DNA of 64,000 nt from Pseudomonadales bacterium (GTDB lineage: Bacteria; Patescibacteriota; Microgenomatia; UBA1400; PJMF01), in NCBI GenBank assembly GCA_020632265.1, contig JACKFW010000001.1, forward strand, positions 919,272 to 983,271, read 5' to 3'. Shown here piece by piece: positions 30,412-42,093 of this stretch (the first letter of the stretch is position 1; each line of letters starts with the position of its first letter). The notes beneath the pieces are model-generated. The model searched no databases. It had not been told where the DNA came from and saw only the letters and a list, made by a program, of their open reading frames with translations. Both the position numbers and the translations under genes were made by a program.

Positions 30412-33400
30412 CTAATTAACTTCTTGCCATACTATACTTGGTTTCATCATAATAGTCGGAACATTGATATTAAAATCAGGTCTAAATATAAACGTTTCAA
30501 TAGGATTTAAATTATTTAATTGTTTATCAGTGATATCATTGGTGTTTTCATAGTCTCTAGTAAGATTTATACCTGACCAGCCTACAAACGTACCAGCCCC
30601 AACAAATTTATTGTCTTTTAAAGTATCATCATTTATGGGGTCATCGCTATAGCCTTTGACATTAATAGAACCATCTGCAACAAACACACCTTCGACGTTT
30701 GTATCTAGGTTTGTTTCGTTTGTGTTTCCTATGTTGGCATCAAAATTAATATCACCACTAACTATAAAGGCGATAAATCCACCCGGTTCAACAGTTAACA
30801 TTCTTGTATCTTGATTTGAAGTGAGGGATAAGTTTCCATTTACAAAGATAACAATATTTCTAGAACTAACGACATTTTGTGTTGTAGAGAAATCAATGGA
30901 TAAGTCGCTATTACTGTAATATATTTCTGTGTCGGATTCAGCTCCGGGATCGGAAGGAATACTGTTTATAGTTCCAGAAATAGCAGTTGCTGCTCCCAGA
31001 TCAACTTCACTTGCAAAGAAATTGTAGTTTTCTTTGATTAGGTTTTCATGAGTGGTATTTTCAGCCTTTGGGTCGTTTGCACCTCTTTCTGAATTGTATC
31101 CATTAGTAGAAACTGCGTTTCCTGACATTGGAATTCCAGCAGAATTTGTGTCTGAGTCTAGGTTCATGGTAACTGCATCTGGTTTGCAGATTGCCGTATT
31201 GTTGACATCATAACAGGTTTGGGGAATGTTGGTAATAAAACTATCCGCTCCATAAGCATTTCCTCCTACAACTTGCCACCAAGGTCCATTGGAAAGATTG
31301 ACTGTTGTGACATAAAAATGCTCATTTAGATTTGGAGAAATTGAGTCAGTGTGAGTGCATATTAAAGGATTGTTTCCAACCGGACAACTACAAATTAGAA
31401 TGTTAGCTGGATTAGCACTATTGTCTATTTCAAGAGAAGTAGTAAATCCATAATCGTTCCATTGTGATGACGGAGCATATGGGACATTTAACCTTGTATA
31501 GCTATCAGTGAGAGTCGTAGCTTGATCGCCAATACTGCCATAGACTGAAGATCCCGGATAGTTTGAAAAATCTATGGGATCTGTATCATCACCAAGGCAA
31601 TTACCACCAATCAGACTTGGAGATGGATCAATGTAAAAATTACCTCTAACTTGTGCAACAAGTGTATATCCAGATTTATCAGACCATGGGCCAGAAGCTG
31701 GTGTACAAGGGATAGCATTTACTGCACTAACTGCAACATACAGGTCATTATCATAAATATGGCTTGGAGTTGTAATGGTGTAGGTTTCAACTTTGTTTGC
31801 TGTTTGGTAATTAAAACAGTCTGATGAAGTATTACATGGATCAGGACGGTTTGGTCCTCTATCTTTATCCCATACGTTGATTTGGTAATAGTCGATTGTC
31901 GAGTTAGGATCAGGTGTTCCTGGATCATCCCAAGTAACAGTTAGATTATCATCTAAAGTTAAATCCAGATTACTGTTTGGATCTTGACCATTAATTCTAA
32001 CATTGGTTACTTGGTTTGGAGTTGCACCTGTATCTCCACACTCAGTTCCTCCACAAGAAGGTGTACAGGCTACAATTGATTGTGTACTACCACATGCGTC
32101 TATATAAGTAACTCCTAGTTCACCACAGTTAGAGGGATTTCCTGATGTGAGATTACCTTGGATATCAGAAACATTTACAATTACATAATAATCTCCCTCA
32201 GACATTCCAGAGGTGTCCCATAATATTTGGTAAAAGTCTGTATTAGAAATTCTTGTTCCTGCGCCCAATTCTGTCCAGTTAGCAGGATCACATGGGTCGT
32301 ATGTTGCAGGCATATAATAGAATTTAACTGTATCTTCATCTACCCCCGCTGTATTGGTTTTGAATAATTTCACTGAGTCGTAATATACCGGCGAGTCGTC
32401 TTGAGGAGGTCTTAGAACAACTCGAATTCTAGTAGTATGTGATCCGTTGTTAGGATTTGGGAACGTTAAATTATATTTAAACCTTGTCCAGCTATCAGGA
32501 TAGAATATTGGATCTATTATAAATACTCCGGTGTCTGTCCAGTCGCCAAGATAGGGATATCTTTGTATAAGAATATATTGCACAAGTTTTGGATACTGAT
32601 GAGATTTTCCTAAAAATGTGAGGGTATATTCTTGATCTGTTAGGTTTTCCCCGGTTTGCATCCATCCTGTTGCCACATGGGGATCTGAATTATTTGCTCT
32701 TGAAAGTTTTGCATAGAAGATACCATCAATTCCGGGAGAAGAAAAAGCACCACTATTCACTGCATACCATTCGTTAATGTTATTAAGTGTTGGCCAATAT
32801 GAAACTGTGCCACTCTCAAAGCTATGGTCGGGAAGAATATTTATGCCATCATCAGTGATCTCTGCTATATATTGTGCTATTCCTCCAGTATTGACAGTTG
32901 GAGATGTAACTTGGAAGCTAGGACATTGAGGAGCTTCATCCTCTGCTGTTGCTACAACTGTAATATTTACAGTAGAAGAACATCTCGAACTACCACCCAT
33001 ATAACCATTAGCAGTTATAGTTGTGGTGCCGGGATAGTCACCGGTAACTAAAGTGGTGTAAGGACTTGAATCATCAAAATCTGGAGAAACAGTTGCTATA
33101 CTGCTATTTAAGCTCGAAAAAGTTACATGACTTATACTTCCATTTTGAACGTTCGATGTAATTGCATTTAGTTCAACGGTGTATCCGGTAGCAACTTGTG
33201 ATGAAGTAACGGGTGTTAGAGAAATATTGCAACTGGGATCAGCTGTTGGTGTGGCCGTTGGTGTGGGCTCGGAATTACAAGCATCGCAATTAGTAGCACA
33301 GGTTCCTTGAGCTACTTGTCCTAAGTTTTGACAAAAGCCACCGTTGGGTTGAGAACAGGAATAACACCATTCCATCCCAGGGGAAGCAGTAGGCGTTGGA

Positions 33401-34437
33401 GTTGGTGTAGGCGTTGGTGTTCCAGCTGGTGGTGGATTCCAAGAGCAAGATTCACTTACTGGTGGATTGCAATAATCAGTATCATTTGGACAGCTAAGTC
33501 CTTCATCCGAACATGCATCCGGCTCGCTTGCATTGCAATTTAAATGTTTAGTACCAAAACAACTGGTTGAAGCGCAATTATTGCATTTGCCAAGCAGTCC
33601 TGGACCACAATCTCCATTAGGGGGGTTGAAGCAAGGAGCACCACCTAGATCACAAGTACAGTTTATATATCCTTTATATTCACAAACATAGCCACCGTCA
33701 CAGTAATCTGCAGCATATACTCTGGGAAAAATATTTTCTAGAATCCTAAATGAAAGAATGTTTGTTTCAAATTTAAATTTAAATAGGCTTTCATTATTCC
33801 TTATTTTTTGATCTACAAAAGTTTGAATTTTACCAAAGACTGTTAAATCTTCAGTGATTATTGATGATAAATATAATGGTCGAATAATATTATAATGAAA
33901 AATAATTCTCAACGAGGCAACTCCCTCATTTTTCAAATTTTGAAGATATTGTTTGTCAAGATAGATATAGTAGGTTAAGATTTCTGTATTATAGTCATAG
34001 GAATTTTTATAACCTTGCATGATAGAGTTATTAAATTGAAATGGAAATATGAGAGATGATTGCTCTTCTTGATTTAAAGATACAATATCATGAAATTCAA
34101 ACATTATTAATTTTGGATTGACAAACTGATTGCCACCTAAAACACGAAGTGAACTCAAATCCACTGGAAATCCTGGTTGAGAAAGTATTTCATCAAAAAA
34201 TGTTTGATTAGAAGAATCAGAATCAATTTGAAACCCTTTAATATCTGATTGAATTTTAAAAGTAATTGCTTCTTTGGTTGCTGTATAGTGAATATATTCT
34301 GTTTCTGATATTGTGTCAGAACTTTTTAGTTTCCAAATAAGTGCTAGCAAAGCAGTTATAAATAAGAAAACTAGAAAAAGTATTTTTGTGTTTTTTTTCA
34401 ACAACATAATTAACTCATTATGTAAGAAATAATGCAA
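30412..34437 (-). CDS. Giant (1341 aa) Cys-rich surface protein with PT linker and Ig-like (Big_2-like) domain; candidate pilus-associated adhesin
   Basis: N-terminal TM/signal; a dense Cys cluster (CDGGYVCEYKGYINCTCDLGGAPCFNPPNGDCGPG...); PTPTPTPTPT linker; VATGYTVELNAITS...TVNITVVA resembles bacterial Ig-like group 2 domains. Beta-rich C-terminal repeats. Co-oriented with the downstream pilin 29868-30389. Confidence 0.5.
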   Translation of the reverse strand: MHYFLHNELIMLLKKNTKILFLVFLFITALLALIWKLKSSDTISETEYIHYTATKEAITFKIQSDIKGFQIDSDSSNQTFFDEILSQPGFPVDLSSLRVLGGNQFVNPKLIMFEFHDIVSLNQEEQSSLIFPFQFNNSIMQGYKNSYDYNTEILTYYIYLDKQYLQNLKNEGVASLRIIFHYNIIRPLYLSSIITEDLTVFGKIQTFVDQKIRNNESLFKFKFETNILSFRILENIFPRVYAADYCDGGYVCEYKGYINCTCDLGGAPCFNPPNGDCGPGLLGKCNNCASTSCFGTKHLNCNASEPDACSDEGLSCPNDTDYCNPPVSESCSWNPPPAGTPTPTPTPTPTASPGMEWCYSCSQPNGGFCQNLGQVAQGTCATNCDACNSEPTPTATPTADPSCNISLTPVTSSQVATGYTVELNAITSNVQNGSISHVTFSSLNSSIATVSPDFDDSSPYTTLVTGDYPGTTTITANGYMGGSSRCSSTVNITVVATAEDEAPQCPSFQVTSPTVNTGGIAQYIAEITDDGINILPDHSFESGTVSYWPTLNNINEWYAVNSGAFSSPGIDGIFYAKLSRANNSDPHVATGWMQTGENLTDQEYTLTFLGKSHQYPKLVQYILIQRYPYLGDWTDTGVFIIDPIFYPDSWTRFKYNLTFPNPNNGSHTTRIRVVLRPPQDDSPVYYDSVKLFKTNTAGVDEDTVKFYYMPATYDPCDPANWTELGAGTRISNTDFYQILWDTSGMSEGDYYVIVNVSDIQGNLTSGNPSNCGELGVTYIDACGSTQSIVACTPSCGGTECGDTGATPNQVTNVRINGQDPNSNLDLTLDDNLTVTWDDPGTPDPNSTIDYYQINVWDKDRGPNRPDPCNTSSDCFNYQTANKVETYTITTPSHIYDNDLYVAVSAVNAIPCTPASGPWSDKSGYTLVAQVRGNFYIDPSPSLIGGNCLGDDTDPIDFSNYPGSSVYGSIGDQATTLTDSYTRLNVPYAPSSQWNDYGFTTSLEIDNSANPANILICSCPVGNNPLICTHTDSISPNLNEHFYVTTVNLSNGPWWQVVGGNAYGADSFITNIPQTCYDVNNTAICKPDAVTMNLDSDTNSAGIPMSGNAVSTNGYNSERGANDPKAENTTHENLIKENYNFFASEVDLGAATAISGTINSIPSDPGAESDTEIYYSNSDLSIDFSTTQNVVSSRNIVIFVNGNLSLTSNQDTRMLTVEPGGFIAFIVSGDINFDANIGNTNETNLDTNVEGVFVADGSINVKGYSDDPINDDTLKDNKFVGAGTFVGWSGINLTRDYENTNDITDKQLNNLNPIETFIFRPDFNINVPTIMMKPSIVWQEVN

Positions 34438-34486: not shown

Positions 34487-36115
34487 TTATTCTTCAAAAA
34501 ATTCCGGATATGCTGCAATTACTTTAGTAAATTCAATAGGTGCTGATGGATAATTATAACCCTCTCCAAGGGATTGTTTAGCACGATCAAAGCGCGTAGA
34601 CGAGAACATAGTACGATATGCAGCGTCACGCGCAGCACTTTGTGTATGTTCTCTTTGTGTTTCAAAATCAAGCCCAAAAATTTGTGTTCCAGCGAAAAAT
34701 ATTGTGTTTAAGACATTACCGGCACCAATATTATTGCTATCCACTTCCACCATTCCCTCACCAACCTGGACTATATGATAGATAATATTAGGCTTAGCTG
34801 GATCTATAAATATGCCTACGCCAGATTTATTGTCGTCTGAACCAATTATATACGGCAAAACCAAGCGAACTTCTGTGCCATCGGTAAGTGTGGCATTAAA
34901 CCATCTGGCTTCAGATCCAGGAACTACATCAAATATAGAAATAATTTTAAGTTCTGGACCGAGATTAAACGGAATTTCCAAATATCCGTTGGTCTTCAAA
35001 TCTAACACTGGCATGAGATAACTTAAAGTATCTCCATCACCGCTTAATGAATTTTCCACTTCTTCTCTTGTGACATTGGGATTAATATCTAGAATCCTAG
35101 CAAGAAAAATTTCAGCCAAATATTTGTTAAATAACTCAACACTATCTGGTCTTGTTAATTCTAAAGTACCCAATGTCCCAATAACTTGTTCTGAAAACTC
35201 TTTGGTAAAATACATTTCATGGTGAGGACCAAACTCATCCCCTAACAATGTTCCTTCTCCTTCATGTCCAATAAAAGATGCAATCTCTGTTTCCCCCAAC
35301 AAAGCTTCTTCAACAGTATCGTAGCGTTTAGCTTCTATTTCCTCAGCTACTAGAGCCATAGTATCTTCTGTTGCTTCAGCTTCATTTGTTTCAACCGTAG
35401 TATCTTGTGTTGCTTCAGCTTCAGATGTTGTTGTAGTAGTTGGTGCAGGTGTACCATCACTTTCTGATAGAAACCATTCGTGATTTGTTGGTTCTGGTGT
35501 AACTTGTTTACCAATTATGAGTTCGCCGTTATCGTTTGTACCATATACATAAGTGGTGCCTTTATTTGAACGCACTACTAAAGCAGTTACTATTTTAGCT
35601 TGATGTTTTTCTGCCCAATCAATTGCCTCTTGCAATGGTATTCTAGTTGATACTATCTCATTTTCAGGAGTTTTAGTTAGAACAATTGTTTCATCTCCTA
35701 CATTAAAAAAGGCTACTGTATTTCCATTATCAACAAATTCAATATTTGATTCAGGAGTTGCTCCTTCTTCTATCGCAGCTTCTAAAAAATCAGAATCTGT
35801 AATAGTTGTCATGGGTGGTTCGGGAGGCGTTGATCCCGATGATGCTTCAGGTTGTTCGGGAGGCGTTGATCCTGATGGTGCTTCAGAAGTAGGAGCCTCT
35901 CGAGCTGCAACTGGTGGGATGCCACCACTTTGATTCGTAATTGCTTCTGGATCTTCGACTAAACTAGCTGGATTATTTGGGATATCTTGATCCACTTGTC
36001 GGGGTGTATCACAAGAAGATGTAGTTATTAAAATAAATGCAAATAAAATAAAACCAACTGCTTGCTGCATTTTATGATGTTCACTTAGAAAATGCTTAAT
36101 ATTGTCGTGCCCCAT
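34487..36115 (-). CDS. Lipoprotein-like secreted hypothetical protein (542 aa) with Pro/Glu/Thr-rich repeats
   Basis: Signal plus near-lipobox MQQAVGFILFAFILITTSSC, then EAPSGSTPPEQPEASSGSTPPEPP repeats. Sits upstream in the same operon as the giant protein. Confidence 0.4.
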   Translation of the reverse strand: MGHDNIKHFLSEHHKMQQAVGFILFAFILITTSSCDTPRQVDQDIPNNPASLVEDPEAITNQSGGIPPVAAREAPTSEAPSGSTPPEQPEASSGSTPPEPPMTTITDSDFLEAAIEEGATPESNIEFVDNGNTVAFFNVGDETIVLTKTPENEIVSTRIPLQEAIDWAEKHQAKIVTALVVRSNKGTTYVYGTNDNGELIIGKQVTPEPTNHEWFLSESDGTPAPTTTTTSEAEATQDTTVETNEAEATEDTMALVAEEIEAKRYDTVEEALLGETEIASFIGHEGEGTLLGDEFGPHHEMYFTKEFSEQVIGTLGTLELTRPDSVELFNKYLAEIFLARILDINPNVTREEVENSLSGDGDTLSYLMPVLDLKTNGYLEIPFNLGPELKIISIFDVVPGSEARWFNATLTDGTEVRLVLPYIIGSDDNKSGVGIFIDPAKPNIIYHIVQVGEGMVEVDSNNIGAGNVLNTIFFAGTQIFGLDFETQREHTQSAARDAAYRTMFSSTRFDRAKQSLGEGYNYPSAPIEFTKVIAAYPEFFEE

Positions 36116-36396
36116 ACTTTTTAATCCTATATTTTTATAATTAATGATTTGTTGTTAATAAATTTTTTTATTTATAGTCTTTAATATTTTTTAATTTGAT
36201 CTTACCCTAATTATATAACATAGTCTTATAATAAATCAATATATATCAAATACACATTACGATTTTTAATAGTAATCATATCAGAAGTTCTAATATACTA
36301 TGATTATATATGACAATATAACAAAATGACAAAGTGACTTCAATAATGTTGATCAAGATCTTATTTTAGATTTTGTTTAAATTTATGCATTTATTG

Positions 36397-36969
36397 TCAA
36401 TATAAATTCTTTTGATTATTTTTATCCATATTTTGAGAAATAAGTTTTCTAATAAACGATGCTTTAGAAATCCCTTCTTTTTTTGAATATTCCTGAATAT
36501 GGGAACTTAATTTTGGTGAAAGCATGAGATTAAAGCGAGATTTTCCTTGATTGTTAGCAAAACTTATTGAATCATTAAGGATTTTTTTTAAATTTTTGGG
36601 TTCATATTCAATTAATTGAAAATTGTCGTCTTCTATTCCTAAAATAAATCCTGGTTCATGTTTATTAATGTATAATGCAATAACTGGAATTCTAAGGTCT
36701 AAAGCATACTTTATCAAATATCCCATCGTTAAACTATGAGTAGATACTTCTAAGATTACAACTTCAGATTTTTTTATTAATTTTAATGCGTTATTGTGTA
36801 CTTCAGTTTTGTGATTATCAGATGAGGAATAAAATTTATTTGGATCAGTATTAATTTCATAATTATCAGTGTTTTTATGTTCAAGGTTTGAAATTAAATT
36901 ATGAATGATTTTATAGTTTAGTTTGATTTCTTTTGGCGCTCTTGCAGATGCAGTAAAATATATATTCAT
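36397..36969 (-). CDS. Flavodoxin-fold (TIR / nucleoside-2-deoxyribosyltransferase-like) domain fused to a C-terminal ribbon-helix-helix: paralog A
   Basis: Start re-called at MNIYFTAS by alignment with paralog B (track ORF extends 13 aa further). Shares IFYTAS.R, SEVVILEVSTHSL(T/S)MG, PVIALY and IEY with B. The tail RFNLMLSPKLSSHIQEYSKKEGISKASFIRKLI has an RHH beta-alpha-alpha pattern. Confidence 0.45.
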   Translation of the reverse strand: MNIYFTASARAPKEIKLNYKIIHNLISNLEHKNTDNYEINTDPNKFYSSSDNHKTEVHNNALKLIKKSEVVILEVSTHSLTMGYLIKYALDLRIPVIALYINKHEPGFILGIEDDNFQLIEYEPKNLKKILNDSISFANNQGKSRFNLMLSPKLSSHIQEYSKKEGISKASFIRKLISQNMDKNNQKNLY

Positions 36970-36982
36970 AATATTATTTTTT

Positions 36983-37954
36983 TCAATAATTTTTGCTGTC
37001 ACAAACAATTTTAATTTGAAAGAATCCGTGAAAACTTATTTTTGGCAATCCAATATATTCAATTTTAATATTTTTGAAACCACATTTATTAAGAAGAAAT
37101 TTCCATTCTGAAACGCTCTTAAATTGAAAAGGTAGATTCATTTTAGTAAGTCCTTGAGTCACGATATTTCCATAAAAATCCATTAACATGACCGACTCCA
37201 TTTGAGATTTTGGAGATAAATTCAAGAATTGTTCAGTGATTTTCTTGTTTTTATTGAGATTATTTTTTTTAATGTATTTAGAGTCAAAAACATCTTCAAT
37301 GATAATGAGTCTTTTGGAAATTTTAGAAAGTTCAGTAATTGTGTTGATAAGATTGCTTTTTGATATATGATGTAAAACAGTTATTAATATTGATGTATCA
37401 TTTTTGATAATTCTTTTTGAGATGTCTGAAGAAGAATTAATTTTGATGAATGGAATACTGCTTTGTTTGATTTCTCTATAATCTAATACATCACTTGAGA
37501 TAATTTTAAATCCTTTATCCAGAATCAATTTTGACATATAGCCTTTACCAGAGCCAAAATCAAGAATTTTTTCTCCTATAATGTCATTCTTTATTATTGA
37601 ATAGTAATAGTTTGGTTTCAAAAATGATTTATACAAATCATATTCTTTATAAAACTCTTCGGCCTTATTCTTTGAATAAATATTTTTTGAAATAAAGTTA
37701 ATTGAATTTTTAAGATTTATGATACTTAGATTCTTTTGTTGACTTTCTTGTAGAATTTTAAAAGTTTGATCAATTAATATTGAAGAATATTTATTTGATG
37801 AAAATATACAATGATAATGCTCTGTAATAACATATTTAACAAATTCAATTACATTTTCATTTCTTAATAATTTACATAGATTTATACTATTTACAACATC
37901 AGTAAGAATAGTTTCCGAATGAAAGTTCTGAATTATATTATTTCGAAATGTCAT
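36983..37954 (-). CDS. Class I SAM-dependent methyltransferase
   Basis: Motif I ILDFGSGKGYMS followed by an acidic residue at the end of beta2 (KIISSDVLD). 323 aa. Directly upstream of paralog A on the same strand. Confidence 0.6.
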   Translation of the reverse strand: MTFRNNIIQNFHSETILTDVVNSINLCKLLRNENVIEFVKYVITEHYHCIFSSNKYSSILIDQTFKILQESQQKNLSIINLKNSINFISKNIYSKNKAEEFYKEYDLYKSFLKPNYYYSIIKNDIIGEKILDFGSGKGYMSKLILDKGFKIISSDVLDYREIKQSSIPFIKINSSSDISKRIIKNDTSILITVLHHISKSNLINTITELSKISKRLIIIEDVFDSKYIKKNNLNKNKKITEQFLNLSPKSQMESVMLMDFYGNIVTQGLTKMNLPFQFKSVSEWKFLLNKCGFKNIKIEYIGLPKISFHGFFQIKIVCDSKNY

Positions 37955-38001
37955 GTAGTTAAAGTATAATTAAAAATCGTAGGTTGGAATTATAACAGAA
38001 A

Positions 38002-38018
38002 ACACACAATAAGTGTGT
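38002..38018. promoter_or_regulatory. Perfect 17-bp palindrome ACACACAATAAGTGTGT in the divergent promoter region between the methyltransferase and paralog B
   Basis: Seen in sequence. Lies in a 169-bp intergenic region flanked by two genes encoding RHH domains. Confidence 0.35.
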
Positions 38019-38123
38019 AACACAACAAGAACACTCATGTTATGTTAGGTGTGATTAATATCATGATATAATGCATCGTTGTTTGATTAGTAAATATAAT
38101 TTTAATAATTCATTTTTTTATTT

Positions 38124-38696
38124 ATGAAAATTTTTTATACTGCTTCTCTGAGAGGTATTAAAACAAATAGAGAAAAATTGCAAAACATTTATAATCTAAT
38201 AGAAAAGTTAGGGCATAAAAATCTTGACAAAGTACTATTTAATATTGAAGACAAAGATAAATTTTATAATGGAAAGCATGCTGAGAAAATTAGCCATTTT
38301 CAAAGAATGATACGGTCTATAAAACAATCTGAAGTTGTAATCTTAGAAGTATCTACTCATAGCTTATCAATGGGTTTTATTCTACATAAAGCCCTCGAAA
38401 TGAATAAACCCGTCATTGCACTATACCAACCAGGAAATCCCCCATTTTTTGCCCAAGGCATTGAAAATGATAAATTACAAGTAATCGAGTACACAGAATC
38501 TGATTTGGAAAACATACTCAAGGATTCAATAGACTATGCTCAAGGAAAATCAGATGTTAGATTTAATTTTTTTATTTCACCCGAAATTGGAAATTATCTA
38601 GATTGGATCTCAAAAGTAAAGAAAATTCCTCGCTCGGTTTATTTGCGAACTCTAATTGAGAAAGATATGGAAAAGAATAGTGAGTTTAAATCATAA
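38124..38696 (+). CDS. Flavodoxin-fold (TIR / nucleoside-2-deoxyribosyltransferase-like) domain fused to a C-terminal ribbon-helix-helix: paralog B
   Basis: MKIFYTASLRG...SEVVILEVSTHSLSMGFILHKALEMNKPVIALY...RFNFFISPEIGNYLDWISKVKKIPRSVYLRTLIEKDM. About 45% identical to paralog A, with the same 190-aa length. Confidence 0.45.
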   Translation: MKIFYTASLRGIKTNREKLQNIYNLIEKLGHKNLDKVLFNIEDKDKFYNGKHAEKISHFQRMIRSIKQSEVVILEVSTHSLSMGFILHKALEMNKPVIALYQPGNPPFFAQGIENDKLQVIEYTESDLENILKDSIDYAQGKSDVRFNFFISPEIGNYLDWISKVKKIPRSVYLRTLIEKDMEKNSEFKS

Positions 38697-38757
38697 ATTC
38701 TATTTATAACCTATCTCCCATTGCGTTTTAATATCTTATTAAGGTATTATTGATATA

Positions 38758-38779
38758 TTAACAGATCAAGATCTGTTAA
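38758..38779. promoter_or_regulatory. 22-bp perfect inverted repeat TTAACAGATC-AA-GATCTGTTAA downstream of paralog B and upstream of the PilX-like gene
   Basis: Seen in sequence. Could be a terminator stem or an operator. Confidence 0.3.
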
Positions 38780-38813
38780 TAAATTTTGCAGTATAACTTG
38801 TCTGGGTAAATAA

Positions 38814-39617
38814 ATGTATAAAGTGTATCCAATGATCCCAACCAAAAATCAGCAAGGCCAAATAGCCATAGTAATTTTATTAATCATGGTAGTGTTATTA
38901 ACAATTGGTTTGTCTCTTGCTTCAAGAACAACTCAGGAAGTTTTTCTTTCTCAACAAGAGGCTGAATCTACCAGAGTATTCAATGCTGCTGAATCAGGAG
39001 TCGAAGACGCTTTATCACAAGATTTTTCAGCAATGTCTGGAACTCAAAACCTTCCGAATGTTGGAATTGATAACGTTACAACAAATACCACAATTATTCC
39101 TCAAGGAGTGATTGAGACTCAAATCACCGAAGGTACTTCTGTACACCTAGATTTAACAGGAATTGCTGGTGGCTCTCCGATTACAATTGAATGGTCTAAA
39201 AATTCTGATTGTGACAATTCCGCTTCACTGATCGCCACAACATATTATGACGACGCGGGAGAAACTAAAGTAGTTCATGATCCTTTTGGACCAGAACTTC
39301 CTTGCACTTCACCTAGAGACGTTGATGATTTTACTAGAGAACCAAGTGTTGACGCCGTCTATAAGTACAAGCACACTCTTAATTTGCCAACTGGCATTGG
39401 TGTAACGCCATTATTTATGAGAATTAAAGCCGTTTATGCTGATACACCTCTCAGGGTTACTGGAGCTGAAGCCACCAATCAATACTTTATTATCAGAGCT
39501 GAGGCAAATAATGATCTTGGAGATGAAAGTCGTACTATCGAAGTTGGCAGAGGTCTTTCGACAGCACCATCATTTATGGATTATGCCTTGTACTCTGGAG
39601 GTACATTAGGACAATAG
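38814..39617 (+). CDS. PilX-like type IV pilus assembly/minor pilin-like protein
   Basis: N-terminus NQQGQIAIVILLIMVVLLTIGLSLASRTTQEV resembles the PilX N-terminal domain. Located immediately upstream of pilMNO. Confidence 0.45.
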   Translation: MYKVYPMIPTKNQQGQIAIVILLIMVVLLTIGLSLASRTTQEVFLSQQEAESTRVFNAAESGVEDALSQDFSAMSGTQNLPNVGIDNVTTNTTIIPQGVIETQITEGTSVHLDLTGIAGGSPITIEWSKNSDCDNSASLIATTYYDDAGETKVVHDPFGPELPCTSPRDVDDFTREPSVDAVYKYKHTLNLPTGIGVTPLFMRIKAVYADTPLRVTGAEATNQYFIIRAEANNDLGDESRTIEVGRGLSTAPSFMDYALYSGGTLGQ

Positions 39618-39652: not shown

Positions 39653-40672
39653 TTGGAAGATCATATGCCTGCCGTAGCATTAGACATTGGAACATATAGT
39701 ATTAAAGCAGTACATGCTAAACCTGGAAAAGTTGTGGAGGTTCAACGTGTTGTTGAAGTTTTCAATGAAACGGGTATTGCTTTACCAACAGATGATGTAA
39801 GCGTGGCTAAACTCAAAGAACTGCTAGATTCTTTTTTTGGTGATAATGAATTGCCAAGAAACGATGTACGTCTATCTCTTCCAGAAACAATTATTTCAAC
39901 CAAAGTTATAAATATTCCCCCACTTTCTGATGCTGAATTAGCATCCGCAATTGGTTGGCAAGCAGAACAACATATTCCAATTCCTCCAGAAGAGCTTTCT
40001 CTTGAATATCAAGTCCTTTATCGGCCTGAAAAAAGAGAAAATAAACAAATGAGAGTCTTACTTGTTGGAACTAGAAAAAGAATGGTGGAGAGGTATGTAG
40101 CAATGTTTAATGAAATTGGAATTGAGCCCTCATTACTTGAAACTCAAATAATTTCAGTAATTAGGTCGCTTCAATTTACTCAAGAAGATCCAACGACTTT
40201 GATTGCTCATATTGGCTCATCAAGTATGAATTTGTCAATTGTTATGGCAGGTGAACTCAAGTTTGTGATTTCACAGATGAATGGTGGTCAAATGCTTACA
40301 AAAGCATTGGAAACATCAATTGGGTTGGACTCTGCTCAAGCAGAACAATATAAAAGAAGTTATGGACTTGATGGTTCGCAATTTCAAGGCAAAGTTAAAG
40401 AAGCTTTATTGCCTGCAATGAATATGTTGTTAGCTGAAATTAGAAAATCAGTTCAATTTTTTGTAAATCAAAATCCCCAAGATACAGTTCAAAGAATTGT
40501 TCTGTCTGGTGGAACTGCATTATTGCCTGGAATAGTTCAACATATTACCAATGAACTTGGAGTTGAGGTGCTTATTGCCTCTCCTTTTTCAGGTGCAAAA
40601 GGACAGGTTCCAGAAAATGTCAATCACCCTGCAATGAGTGTTTGCATGGGACTTTTACAACGTGAGATGTAA
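39653..40672 (+). CDS. pilM: Type IV pilus assembly protein PilM (actin-like)
   Basis: ALDIGTYSIKAV N-terminal phosphate-1 motif and the ...LSGGTALLPG adenosine motif. 339 aa. Confidence 0.75.
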   Translation: MEDHMPAVALDIGTYSIKAVHAKPGKVVEVQRVVEVFNETGIALPTDDVSVAKLKELLDSFFGDNELPRNDVRLSLPETIISTKVINIPPLSDAELASAIGWQAEQHIPIPPEELSLEYQVLYRPEKRENKQMRVLLVGTRKRMVERYVAMFNEIGIEPSLLETQIISVIRSLQFTQEDPTTLIAHIGSSSMNLSIVMAGELKFVISQMNGGQMLTKALETSIGLDSAQAEQYKRSYGLDGSQFQGKVKEALLPAMNMLLAEIRKSVQFFVNQNPQDTVQRIVLSGGTALLPGIVQHITNELGVEVLIASPFSGAKGQVPENVNHPAMSVCMGLLQREM

Positions 40673-40697: not shown

Positions 40698-41300
40698 ATG
40701 TCAAAATCAATCAATTTTGTTGGAGATAGAAGAAAACGTCTCACAAAAACTCAAAAACAAGACAAAAAAATTATGGGCATCATGATTAATGTTGTAATTG
40801 CAATTTTTGCAATTTTTTTAATTGTTTTAGGGTTGAGAGTTTTTTATGTTTTTAGAGTAAAGTCAGTCAAGGATGAGCAAATTAGTGTTAAAAATATCAT
40901 TCTTTCACATGAGAGTGTTGAGAAAGAATATATTATTTTTGCTCAAAAATTAAAAAAATTAGCAGTATTTTTTGGAAAAAGAAAAGATAAGCAGGAAGCG
41001 CTAGTATTTTTTAGTGAAGTTTTTGGTGATGAAGTTATTGTAAGTGGGATTGATTATAGTTCTTCAGATGAAGACGTGGTTTCATTTGTTATTAAGGCTC
41101 CAAATATCTTTGTGATGGAGAGAGTTTTTACTACTATAGATTCTGTTGATGTAGCTTCTAAATATCCTAATATTACTAAGAAAAATATGAGACGCTCAAG
41201 TACGGGTAACTATACTGTAGATTTGACAGTTATACTGGTTGCTGAGGCTGATTTAGTTGGATCACAACCAGTTAGTCCAAATTCGGAAGGTATTCAATAA
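40698..41300 (+). CDS. pilN: PilN-like inner-membrane pilus alignment protein
   Basis: Basic N-terminus, a single TM (IMINVVIAIFAIFLIVLGL) and a periplasmic domain. Position after pilM. Confidence 0.5.
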   Translation: MSKSINFVGDRRKRLTKTQKQDKKIMGIMINVVIAIFAIFLIVLGLRVFYVFRVKSVKDEQISVKNIILSHESVEKEYIIFAQKLKKLAVFFGKRKDKQEALVFFSEVFGDEVIVSGIDYSSSDEDVVSFVIKAPNIFVMERVFTTIDSVDVASKYPNITKKNMRRSSTGNYTVDLTVILVAEADLVGSQPVSPNSEGIQ

Positions 41301-41301
41301 G

Positions 41302-42093
41302 ATGCAAACAACTAAAAAACCATTAAACATCAAAATGTTTTTTGTAAATAGAAAACACATGCTCATAGCACTGATTTTAGGCATTGTTGCCTTTGGTTTA
41401 GTTGTTTTTGCAATAATTCCACAATTTAGAGAATTTTTATCTCTAAGCACTGAGCTTAAAAAAGAAATTCCTCAGCTAGATAAGCTTAAAAAAAAGTTAG
41501 TTGAACTTGAGAATATTCAATTTACACCTGAATTTGCTCAGGCTTCGATAGTAGAGAGTGCTTTACCTTCAAAAAAACCATTACTTGAATTACTCACAAG
41601 TTTAAATTCCATAGCAGTTTCTAATTCTATTCAAATTGATGACTTTGATCTTAATCCTGGTATTATTGCTTCAAACACTGCTGAACTACAAGCAAATGCC
41701 AAAAATGCAACAAATAAAGATGGAGTTGATACCCTAAAAGTGTCTATGAATGCCATTGGAACATTCAATAATATACAACAATTTCTAATTGATTTGGAAA
41801 AAATCTCACCATTTACTACTATTAAAACTTTATCTCTAAATTCTAGAAAAAGAGGCGATGATTTTAATGAGCAAGAACAAGATATGCAAGCTAAATTGAC
41901 AACTGAATCACATTTTTTTACACAGACTGTTTCGGCTGCTATTGAAGCTCCTTTACCAATAATATCAACGAAAGAGCAGGTAGTTTTAAAAGAATTAACA
42001 AATTTTTCTGTGTCTGATTTGCCAGAACAGTTAGATATTAAGGGTGGTGGTTTAGAAGATTTTTTTGGAGTTGATCCAATTAATTTTGATTGA
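41302..42093 (+). CDS. pilO: PilO-like pilus alignment protein (start re-called at ATG 41302)
   Basis: Single TM (LIALILGIVAFGLVVFAII), then a coiled-coil and periplasmic domain. The first ATG after the pilN stop is used instead of the overlapping track start. Confidence 0.45.
   Translation: MQTTKKPLNIKMFFVNRKHMLIALILGIVAFGLVVFAIIPQFREFLSLSTELKKEIPQLDKLKKKLVELENIQFTPEFAQASIVESALPSKKPLLELLTSLNSIAVSNSIQIDDFDLNPGIIASNTAELQANAKNATNKDGVDTLKVSMNAIGTFNNIQQFLIDLEKISPFTTIKTLSLNSRKRGDDFNEQEQDMQAKLTTESHFFTQTVSAAIEAPLPIISTKEQVVLKELTNFSVSDLPEQLDIKGGGLEDFFGVDPINFD

Follow-up and report, generated by a model that had tools for sequence, protein, structure and literature searches.

Paralogs A and B, which lie next to the type IV pilus genes of a tiny-genome Patescibacteria bacterium, encode proteins of a large, unnamed and lineage-specific family in which, judging from sequence, a nucleotide-binding-type pseudoenzyme is joined to a DNA-binding-type domain. 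The initial annotation did not recognise this domain architecture as a described system, and no description of it was found. The two proteins can tentatively be seen, with slightly less than even confidence, as one-component regulators that belong to a large family specific to Patescibacteria and are made of a pseudoenzyme sensor and a ribbon-helix-helix (RHH) domain; the family is probably one of nucleotide-responsive gene regulators and not an antiphage system. This interpretation draws on the fold of the N-terminal domain, the loss of its catalytic Glu and Asp, the retention of Ser and Arg, the RHH-type C-terminus, the placement of B and the pairing of enzymes with family genes.

Organization of the Locus

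Within the window, i.e., the whole stretch of 64,000 nucleotides that was analysed, an ORF check confirmed the coordinates and strands first assigned to three genes: paralog A (36397-36969, minus strand, 190 aa from ATG), the SAM methyltransferase MT (36983-37954, minus strand, 323 aa) and paralog B (38124-38696, plus strand, 190 aa), which has the same two-domain architecture as A and is the pilus-adjacent ortholog. A is the second gene of an MT-A pair and starts 13 nt past the MT stop; a longer TTG start at 37008 was rejected, as Met1 at 36969 matches the conserved N-terminus in the family alignment. Paralogy of A and B is borne out by an alignment of 187 aa with 42% identity (E 1e-47), compared with the ~45% originally claimed, and the conserved blocks described in the pair are real and family-wide in the alignment. 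No additional family copy is present elsewhere in the 64-kb window.

GC content is 0.22-0.26 across 36000-38250 versus 0.35-0.40 in the flanks. Of 52 genes, the lowest GC is that of MT (0.236, z -2.95), followed by that of A (0.251, z -2.49); B (0.298, z -1.14) is inside the normal range of this set. The earlier description of an AT-rich cassette thus holds for MT and A and fails for B, and the whole A/MT/B unit is not a cassette interrupting the pilus locus, B being a conserved resident and not an insertion. MT and A, low in GC and confined to a lineage, are the accessory part of the unit, with B as its resident core gene.

The pilus context is confirmed by Pfam: PilB-like, PilT-like, PilC and PilD genes and several pilin genes lie upstream, and a PilX_N-like gene (38814-39617, weak match), PilM (39653-40672), a gene assigned to PilN by its position (40698-41300) and PilO (41257-42093) follow downstream, all four on the plus strand. 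B orthologs sit immediately upstream of pilX-pilM-N-O in 16 of the 23 loci that have this cluster; the orthologs stay in one genomic position from genus to genus, and the synteny is vertically inherited. The family as a whole has two conserved contexts, pilX-MNO and dnaX-ybaB-recR. Since the latter is a widespread, conserved set of housekeeping genes, lying beside it may mean no more than that the site tolerates insertions. The pilX-like/pilM/N/O genes have a sigma70-type promoter (38721-38750, plus strand, TTGCGT-18 nt-TATTAT), whose consensus CCCATTGCA-N17/18-GGTATTATT recurs in at least 12 loci; the cluster promoter is its own and conserved. MT and B are separated by a divergent promoter spacer (37955-38123) that carries an extended -10 box for each of them, TGTTATAAT for MT (hexamer 37994-37989, minus strand) and TGATATAAT for B (38064-38072, plus strand), both common to the orthologous spacers. 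Among the roles proposed at the outset, that of a regulator of the flanking pilus genes fits B best, on its conserved adjacency only.

A Nucleotide-Hydrolase Fold without Catalytic Residues

The N-terminal domain of A and B is DNPH1/Rcl/MilB-like and belongs to the nucleoside deoxyribosyltransferase superfamily (NDT/DrHyd). It has a Rossmann-like fold with significant sequence or profile similarity to DNPH1, MilB or NDT; A and B score 12.3-12.7 bits with Pfam PF05014, under its gathering threshold of 28.8, and some homologs carry a precomputed PF05014 match. The class of flavodoxin-like nucleotide domains suggested by the initial annotation therefore stands in its NDT/DrHyd option, and more specifically in the DNPH1/MilB branch. 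The TIR and SLOG options fall away: matches to TIR/ThsB and to SLOG/LOG are clearly weaker than those to DNPH1/MilB and come with no sequence-level match and no defence context.

DNPH1/Rcl is a 2'-deoxynucleoside 5'-phosphate N-hydrolase that acts as a 5-hydroxymethyl-dUMP hydrolase, and MilB/BlsM are CMP and hydroxymethyl-CMP N-glycosidases of nucleoside-antibiotic pathways. The likeness of A and B to DNPH1/Rcl comprises the fold and detectable sequence homology across the entire N-domain, and includes the N-terminal 'YF..S.RG' motif, a 'GKP(V/I)' strand, a Glu ending strand 4 and the phosphate-binding Ser (rat S87, S80 in A and B). However, the catalytic positions differ: the nucleophile Glu (human E104, rat E93) aligns ungapped to Ile86 in B and Leu86 in A, and the position of the general-acid Asp (human D80, rat D69) is occupied by Met62 in B and Ala62 in A. 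Because both residues are missing, the effector role once considered for these proteins is unsupported. The role of the nucleophile Glu in DNPH1 has been described, and DNPH1 in which it is mutated is inactive despite keeping the residue that is equivalent, in the present alignment, to E75 (PMC10603095). Ser80 and Arg10, the latter being the conserved Arg of the GS.RG motif, are kept in A and B together with Ser8 (in the family, S80 reaches 95% and S8 90%); B thus presents Phe4-Tyr5, Ser8, Arg10, Glu75 and Ser80, with Ile86 and Met62 at the lost catalytic positions. In further difference from DNPH1/Rcl, A and B lack the helical extension bearing a second phosphate-binding Ser, have an added RHH, and belong to a bacterial, multi-copy family with another genomic context. 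They differ from MilB/BlsM in having neither the catalytic Glu and Asp nor an antibiotic-pathway context and in carrying the fused RHH, and from the nucleoside 2-deoxyribosyltransferases of PF05014 in their sub-threshold scores and incomplete catalytic triad.

The Predicted C-Terminal Ribbon-Helix-Helix Domain

The last 45 residues of A and B form a predicted RHH and are the best-conserved part of both proteins. The AF2 model is extended over residues 143-152 and continues with helices 153-166 and 170-184; the strand motif is R-F-N-F-F-I, and the loop before the second helix reads 'IPRS' in B and, CopG-like, 'GISKAS' in A. The strand-helix-loop-helix pattern of an RHH (~45 residues, an alternating polar/hydrophobic strand and a G/P-x-S/T loop) is present, and the domain aligns with CopG in register. 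Matches to curated models are all of RHH type and all sub-threshold (RHH_3 in 13 of 25 members with a best E of 2e-4, RHH_1 in 6, NikA in 3 and RepB in 2); a PDB match, 7by2, was obtained at E 0.006, and A matches an NCBIfam RepA-regulatory model at E 9e-4. The RHH foreseen in both paralogs is supported by the predicted model, the motif and the CopG alignment. The strongest family conservation falls on the basic/polar surface residues of this domain, and the predicted ribbon strand has an invariant or nearly invariant Arg, usually with an Asn as well.

In terms of design, A and B resemble the ligand-sensing RHH regulators NikR and MetJ, and CopG/Arc, in that an RHH DNA-binding unit is joined to a ligand-binding function, both parts being predictions for A and B. 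Unlike in these proteins, the RHH of A and B stands at the C-terminus, the sensor would be a nucleotide-hydrolase fold, and the operator search came back negative.

Family Size and Subtypes

At 50% identity the family falls into at least 1,022 clusters, nearly all from Patescibacteria/Microgenomates, with a single fixed architecture throughout and frequently two to five copies per locus, in tandem arrays of up to five. E75, S80, G84 and Y123 vary little or not at all. Across sets of 230 and 142 sequences, Glu is found at the nucleophile position in 22-36% of members (51/142 in the smaller set), most others being hydrophobic there, and Asp is not among the commonest residues listed at the general-acid position. 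The Glu86-type members have lost the phosphate-binding Arg10. With about a third of the family keeping the nucleophile Glu, a part of it may be catalytic.

The Methyltransferase and Recurrent Enzyme Pairs

MT consists of an N-terminal five-helix bundle and a Rossmann MTase domain, and its identification as a class-I SAM methyltransferase is secured by the fold, the glycine-rich motif I (LDFGSGKG) and an acidic motif II; its homologs all have LDFGxGxG and D155. It scores 19.8 bits with Methyltransf_23, and its homologs carry PF13489. The AF2 model (pLDDT 87.4) matches small-molecule OMTs with E-values down to 5e-9 and is closest in fold to small-molecule O/N-methyltransferases, with no DNA or RNA MTase among the top 50 structural matches. 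The choice between a nucleic-acid and a small-molecule MTase, which the initial annotation had left to a profile search, probably falls to the small-molecule type on the fold neighbours. A DNA methyltransferase was rejected on these neighbours and on motifs, no (D/N/S)PP(Y/F/W) or PCQ motif being visible in the sequence.

MT belongs to a rare family, with 13 homologs among 5.8 billion proteins, and every homolog examined adjoins an A/B-type copy; the co-localisation of the triad was found in relatives too. The MT-A pair is one instance of a recurrent arrangement in which a family copy stands after the gene of a SAM- or nucleotide-using enzyme. The partners are mostly SAM-using and nucleotide enzymes; they include PfkB, NUDIX, dCMP deaminase and GTP cyclohydrolase II proteins and look like ordinary metabolic enzymes. 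Glu86-type copies come after kinases, radical-SAM enzymes and deaminases, and most loci with a B-type copy show no partner enzyme beside it.

Palindromes and the Search for an Operator

The palindrome ACACAC-AATAA-GTGTGT at 38002-38018, which covers the MT promoter's -35 region, is present as first reported and unusual, with one match to ACACAC-N5-GTGTGT against 0.03 expected, unique in the window. It did not hold up as a family operator, being absent from four orthologous MT-B spacers (L001, L080, L081, L083), which have only the -10 boxes in common with the window spacer; it is a candidate lineage-specific operator or 5' hairpin. A second, near-perfect palindrome, TTAACAGATC-AA-GATCTGTTAA (38758-38779), begins 8 nt past the -10 box of the pil promoter. 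Only the promoter, and not this palindrome, is conserved in the orthologous B-pilX spacers; its position is operator-like, and it may equally be a 5'UTR hairpin. Enrichment of k-mers (5-8) and gapped dyads upstream of family genes and operon starts, relative to other intergenic regions, was computed over 79 loci and returned no conserved operator motif or dyad, AT-rich words and ATGAATGA being the only ones enriched. The latter word (6 versus 0) was discarded as an operator, its occurrences being scattered and mostly within genes.

Proposed Function and Alternatives

As a regulator, the family protein would pair an RHH with a nucleotide N-glycosidase fold of the DNPH1/MilB type that has given up catalysis and become a ligand-binding domain. 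It would dimerise via both domains, and a nucleoside 5'-monophosphate-like ligand in the old active site would alter DNA binding; B might control its own promoter and/or the pilus promoter, and A the MT-A operon from the divergent spacer. Nucleotide or nucleoside status would in this way be coupled to the DNA-uptake/attachment pilus and to accessory nucleotide/SAM enzymes in a nucleotide-scavenging organism. Pseudoenzyme-sensor transcription factors exist, such as NrtR (Nudix-like and wHTH) and Bacillus subtilis PurR (PRTase-like and wHTH), in which, as proposed for A and B, the fold of a nucleotide-metabolism enzyme has lost catalysis and binds the effector, the whole protein acting as a local regulator of nucleotide-related genes; the enzyme fold, the DNA-binding domain, the phylum and the multi-copy arrays set A and B apart. 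Several observations speak against regulation: family genes and operons share no conserved upstream operator motif or dyad, both window palindromes are missing from orthologous spacers, arrays of up to five copies are unusual for regulators, Glu persists in 51/142 members and the RHH matches lie under curated thresholds. The predicted DNA-reading residues are moreover invariant across paralogs, unusual for a diversified family of transcription factors, and could point to a common, non-operator target.

It is unlikely that family members are working N-glycosidases or transferases acting with the upstream partner enzyme, with the RHH serving mainly in dimerisation or in secondary regulation, for which PutA and BirA are precedents. 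Such enzymes might clear the adenosine-type by-products of SAM enzymes (SAH, 5'-deoxyadenosine) or hydrolyse (d)NMPs, normal or modified, that derive from scavenged DNA. The nucleotide N-glycosidase fold, the near-invariant E75, S80, G84 and Y123 and the mainly SAM-using or nucleotide partners are in line with catalysis, as are the kinases, radical-SAM enzymes and deaminases ahead of Glu86-type copies and the ~36% of clusters with the nucleophile Glu, where the loss of Arg10 is what nucleoside substrates without a phosphate would lead one to expect. However, Glu is absent from both A and B, Asp is not among the commonest general-acid residues listed in either family set, Glu-mutated DNPH1 is inactive with its E75 equivalent in place (PMC10603095), and conservation peaks on the basic/polar RHH surface, which a mere dimerisation module would not need. 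An accessory of transformation or recombination that handles DNA beside the pilus and RecR/DnaX, its RHH free of operator specificity and its pocket holding a 5'-phosphorylated nucleotide or DNA end, appears improbable. The two conserved contexts, the retained phosphate-binding residues and ribbon residues that are invariant across paralogs with no operator found would agree with it; the housekeeping nature of dnaX-ybaB-recR, which may mark only a permissive insertion site, weakens it, it does not account for family copies next to methyltransferases, kinases and radical-SAM enzymes, and we know of no precedent for an accessory of such design.

Type II RHH antitoxins usually have an N-terminal RHH and are encoded first, with a cognate toxin family. 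A type II toxin-antitoxin pair does not fit here, as the RHH is C-terminal, the family gene comes after an enzyme or alone and the partners are of metabolic type. More broadly, a toxin-antitoxin-like or antiphage/conflict module, with the variable enzyme as effector or toxin and the RHH protein as an autoregulating neutraliser or nucleotide sensor, is very improbable. A variable partner beside a conserved RHH protein, the low GC of MT and A, PIN and BrnT/CopG genes in one related island and an IS insertion in another would suit such a module, and DrHyd domains are found in conflict systems (PMC9503650). Against this, PADLOC matched B and MT to nothing and A only weakly to Csx1 (E 0.0038), 2.9 million viral contigs yielded one weak partial match, most B-type loci have no partner enzyme, the partners resemble ordinary metabolic enzymes and the C-terminal RHH is unlike that of typical antitoxins. 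Since no PADLOC system is present, viral copies are nearly absent and the orthologs are inherited vertically, in conserved synteny, the antiphage framing of the initial annotation is unsupported.

Broader Significance

Very few transcription factors can be recognised in Patescibacteria (CPR), which to our knowledge are unable to make nucleotides and need type IV pili to attach and probably also to take up DNA. A family kept beside pilMNO and dnaX-recR is thus a concrete candidate for tying pilus expression and salvage to nucleotide status. It is conceivable, if quite unlikely, that the paralog arrays form a nucleotide-pool surveillance system of DNA-scavenging ultrasmall bacteria, or enzyme and sensor pairs that make and sense a nucleoside-derived signal. 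The ex-hydrolase pockets would then be differently tuned, the Arg10 type to nucleoside monophosphates and the Glu86 type to nucleosides or SAM by-products, while all copies would read one DNA target through the invariant RHH; the pilus, replication/recombination genes and a shifting set of SAM/nucleotide enzymes would be coupled to incoming normal or modified nucleotides. Should the regulator reading be true, DNPH1/MilB would be a new enzyme fold among those recruited as sensor domains of regulators, and the split into Arg10 and Glu86 subtypes would offer a tidy case of the transition from enzyme to sensor.

Genes, composition and setting

The initial annotation placed three genes within a type IV pilus locus, and all three are open reading frames: paralog A (36397-36969, minus strand, 190 aa), the class-I SAM methyltransferase MT (36983-37954, minus strand, 323 aa) and paralog B (38124-38696, plus strand, 190 aa), with A and B sharing 42% identity over 187 residues (E 1e-47). 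The pilus setting is likewise real, as Pfam families are found on both sides; PilB-like (T2SSE+MshEN), PilT-like, PilC, PilD and several N_methyl pilin genes lie upstream, and genes for a PilX_N protein (weak match), PilM and PilO lie downstream. Flanking DNA has a GC content of 0.35-0.40, and the stretch 36000-38250 one of 0.22-0.26; the two lowest values among the 52 genes of the window are those of MT (z -2.95) and of A (z -2.49), and that of B is ordinary (z -1.14). Two large genes, 30412-34437(-) and 34487-36115(-), separate the pilin genes from A. Eight related loci encode homologs of the 1341-aa protein close to the pil cluster; the 542-aa protein has neither a Pfam match nor a homolog in the 79 loci surveyed.

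A DNPH1-like fold joined to a ribbon-helix-helix

The catalytic triad of DNPH1 is Y24/D80/E104 in the human enzyme and Y13/D69/E93 in that of rat; of these, human E104 becomes covalently linked in the reaction intermediate, and D80 donates a proton to the base as it leaves (PMC10603095). Residues were matched by counting along ungapped HMMER alignments, with the D69A/D69N constructs as markers. Opposite rat E93, B has Ile86 and A has Leu; opposite D69, B has Met62 and A has Ala. Across 230 non-redundant sequences of the family to which A and B belong, position 86 is Leu, Val or Ile in 71% and Glu in 22% (36% of 142 representatives at 50% identity), and Asp is not among the commonest residues at position 62. 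Conservation is 95% for the phosphate-binding Ser (S80), complete for G84 and Y123 and almost complete for E75. Since A and B are both of the type with Arg10 and no Glu86, the canonical DNPH1 mechanism predicts that a phosphorylated nucleoside-like ligand would be bound by them and left uncleaved. Arg10 and Glu86 are nearly mutually exclusive (Arg only in 65 of the 142 representatives, Glu only in 48, both in 3, neither in 26), which, together with differences in partner genes and operon position, suggests two functional subtypes.

The best conserved stretch of the family is residues 144-185, where R146, F147 and R175 vary little or not at all and L177 and I178 come close to invariance (230 sequences). 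In the model, this part has an extended stretch and then two helices. Searched alone, its profile matches the CopG-family regulator 7by2 (E 0.006), with CopG itself aligned end to end, and domain and CopG are also in register in the hhalign alignment; Pfam returns RHH_3 for 13 of 25 members, and also RHH_1, NikA-like and RepB, all below threshold, as are the RepB/RepA regulatory RHH models matched by A alone. Every match is below threshold, yet all agree in direction, and a ribbon-helix-helix (RHH) fold is therefore accepted; the domain presumably binds DNA.

Distribution and inheritance of the family

A word-indexed search yielded 554 homologs and an exhaustive one 1,022 clusters (50% identity, E ≤ 1e-10), of which the best 150 are nearly all 180-200 aa long and matched end to end. 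All members are annotated as hypothetical, and source names are nearly all Pacebacteria, Woesebacteria, Microgenomates or Patescibacteria. The window proteins and many related MAG records carry the labels “Pseudomonadales” or “Gammaproteobacteria bacterium”, which probably reflects mislabeled taxonomy at the source, as gene content and relatives are those of Patescibacteria/Microgenomates.

In the context survey of 79 species-representative loci, 32 hold two to five family copies. Genes for pilX-like/pilM/N/O proteins are present in 23, and in 16 of these the pilX-like gene is preceded, at <300 bp, by the end of a co-oriented family copy; a second recurrent context has putative dnaX, ybaB, recR and cysS neighbors, named by sequence inspection. 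Of 16 pil-adjacent copies, 11 have a nearest relative in another genome that is pil-adjacent too (permutation mean 2.1, maximum 9), and of 48 in the recR/cysS context, 40 have one that shares it. Context tracks phylogeny, and the family copies thus form vertically inherited orthologous groups. The suggestion that B arrived as part of an insertion does not hold: it is a resident, pil-adjacent ortholog.

Partner enzymes

As to partner enzymes and METHYLTRANSFERASE, a co-oriented gene lies ≤150 bp upstream of 98 of 120 family copies. This gene is another family copy in 21 of the 98; the others encode mostly enzymes. Class-I SAM methyltransferases, of several kinds unrelated to each other, account for 23, kinases (PfkB, AAA_33 and uridine-kinase types) for 11, radical-SAM enzymes for 8 and dCMP/cytidine deaminases for 3; NUDIX, GTP cyclohydrolase II and a PRTase-like protein also occur. 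Glu86-type copies are the main partners of kinases, radical-SAM enzymes and deaminases, methyltransferases pair with both types, and 17 of 20 operon-start copies are of the Arg10 type. Two recurrent upstream partner families have no Pfam match: c66 (358 aa; L032 6909-7985, L043, L053), flanked by two family copies where the pil cluster starts, and c39 (308 aa; L072 7050-7976).

The MT→A pair, with its 13-nt gap, is one case of this enzyme-then-family-copy pattern. MT has just 13 homologs in 5.8 billion proteins, and all nine examined adjoin family genes; locus L081 reproduces the B←|→MT→A arrangement exactly, and L020 and L084 have different methyltransferases at the equivalent position. The MT model (pLDDT 87.4) combines a helical bundle with a Rossmann methyltransferase, its closest structures being small-molecule O/N-methyltransferases at modest TM (0.4-0.5), with no nucleic-acid methyltransferase among the best 50 matches.

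Promoters, palindromes and probable function

The MT-B spacer contains extended -10 boxes for MT and for B, both common to orthologous spacers. The palindrome noted there by the initial annotation (38002-38018) is genuine and unusual, with 1 match in the window against 0.03 expected, and overlaps the -35 region of the MT promoter. In the spacer between the family gene and the pilX-like gene lies, at 38716-38752, a strongly conserved sigma70-type promoter, CCCATTGCA-N17/18-GGTATTATT, which precedes pilX-like/pilM/N/O genes in many Microgenomates genomes (L001, L003, L008, L010, L015, L017, L020, L025, L036 and others); the pilus genes thus have a promoter of their own just after the family gene. 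Directly after its -10 box comes a near-perfect palindrome with 10-bp arms, TTAACAGATC-AA-GATCTGTTAA (38758-38779). Both palindromes are placed like operators.

The best-supported reading, which we favor tentatively, is that family members are one-component regulators in which a pseudo-DNPH1 sensor acts with the RHH, a design analogous to that of NrtR, PurR or NikR; this would link B with the pilus operon and A with the accessory MT. The main weakness of this regulator model is the missing shared operator signal: neither palindrome is conserved in sequence in orthologous spacers, the pil spacers having other small hairpins in place of 38758-38779, and comparison across loci brought out no k-mer or dyad in common. 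This lack, together with the invariant ribbon residues, leaves room for alternative DNA-related roles, of which one, that of an accessory handling DNA non-specifically in uptake or recombination, seems improbable. A working glycosidase partnering the upstream enzyme is unlikely overall, and is less plausible for A and B than for the Glu86 subtype. A toxin-antitoxin or defense module is very improbable, as PADLOC was negative, the family is near-absent from viruses (a single weak partial match among 2.9 million viral contigs), synteny is vertical and the partners are of metabolic type.

Taken singly, fold, RHH and design principle are already known. No published description of the pseudo-DNPH1 and RHH architecture was found in the literature; the combination, the size of the family and its confinement to Patescibacteria, the division into two subtypes and the pilMNO link appear to be undescribed.

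Accessory genes and repeats at related loci

In a Pacebacteria locus (L080 6630-9192), a pilM-adjacent family array is followed by PIN, BrnT/CopG-antitoxin and AAA_14/DUF4143 genes; the pilM-adjacent position thus collects other accessory genes too. A close relative has an IS30-like transposase gene (HTH_38 + rve; L002 4892-5893) inserted between its orthologs of MT and B, and the spacer there also has a tandem TTTGTGTTAGG repeat. Tandem AAATTCTCAAATTCTCAAAT-type repeats are found repeatedly in Microgenomates loci (L027 835 and 2909; L033 2483; L041 4407; L070 4140; L066; L067; L069).
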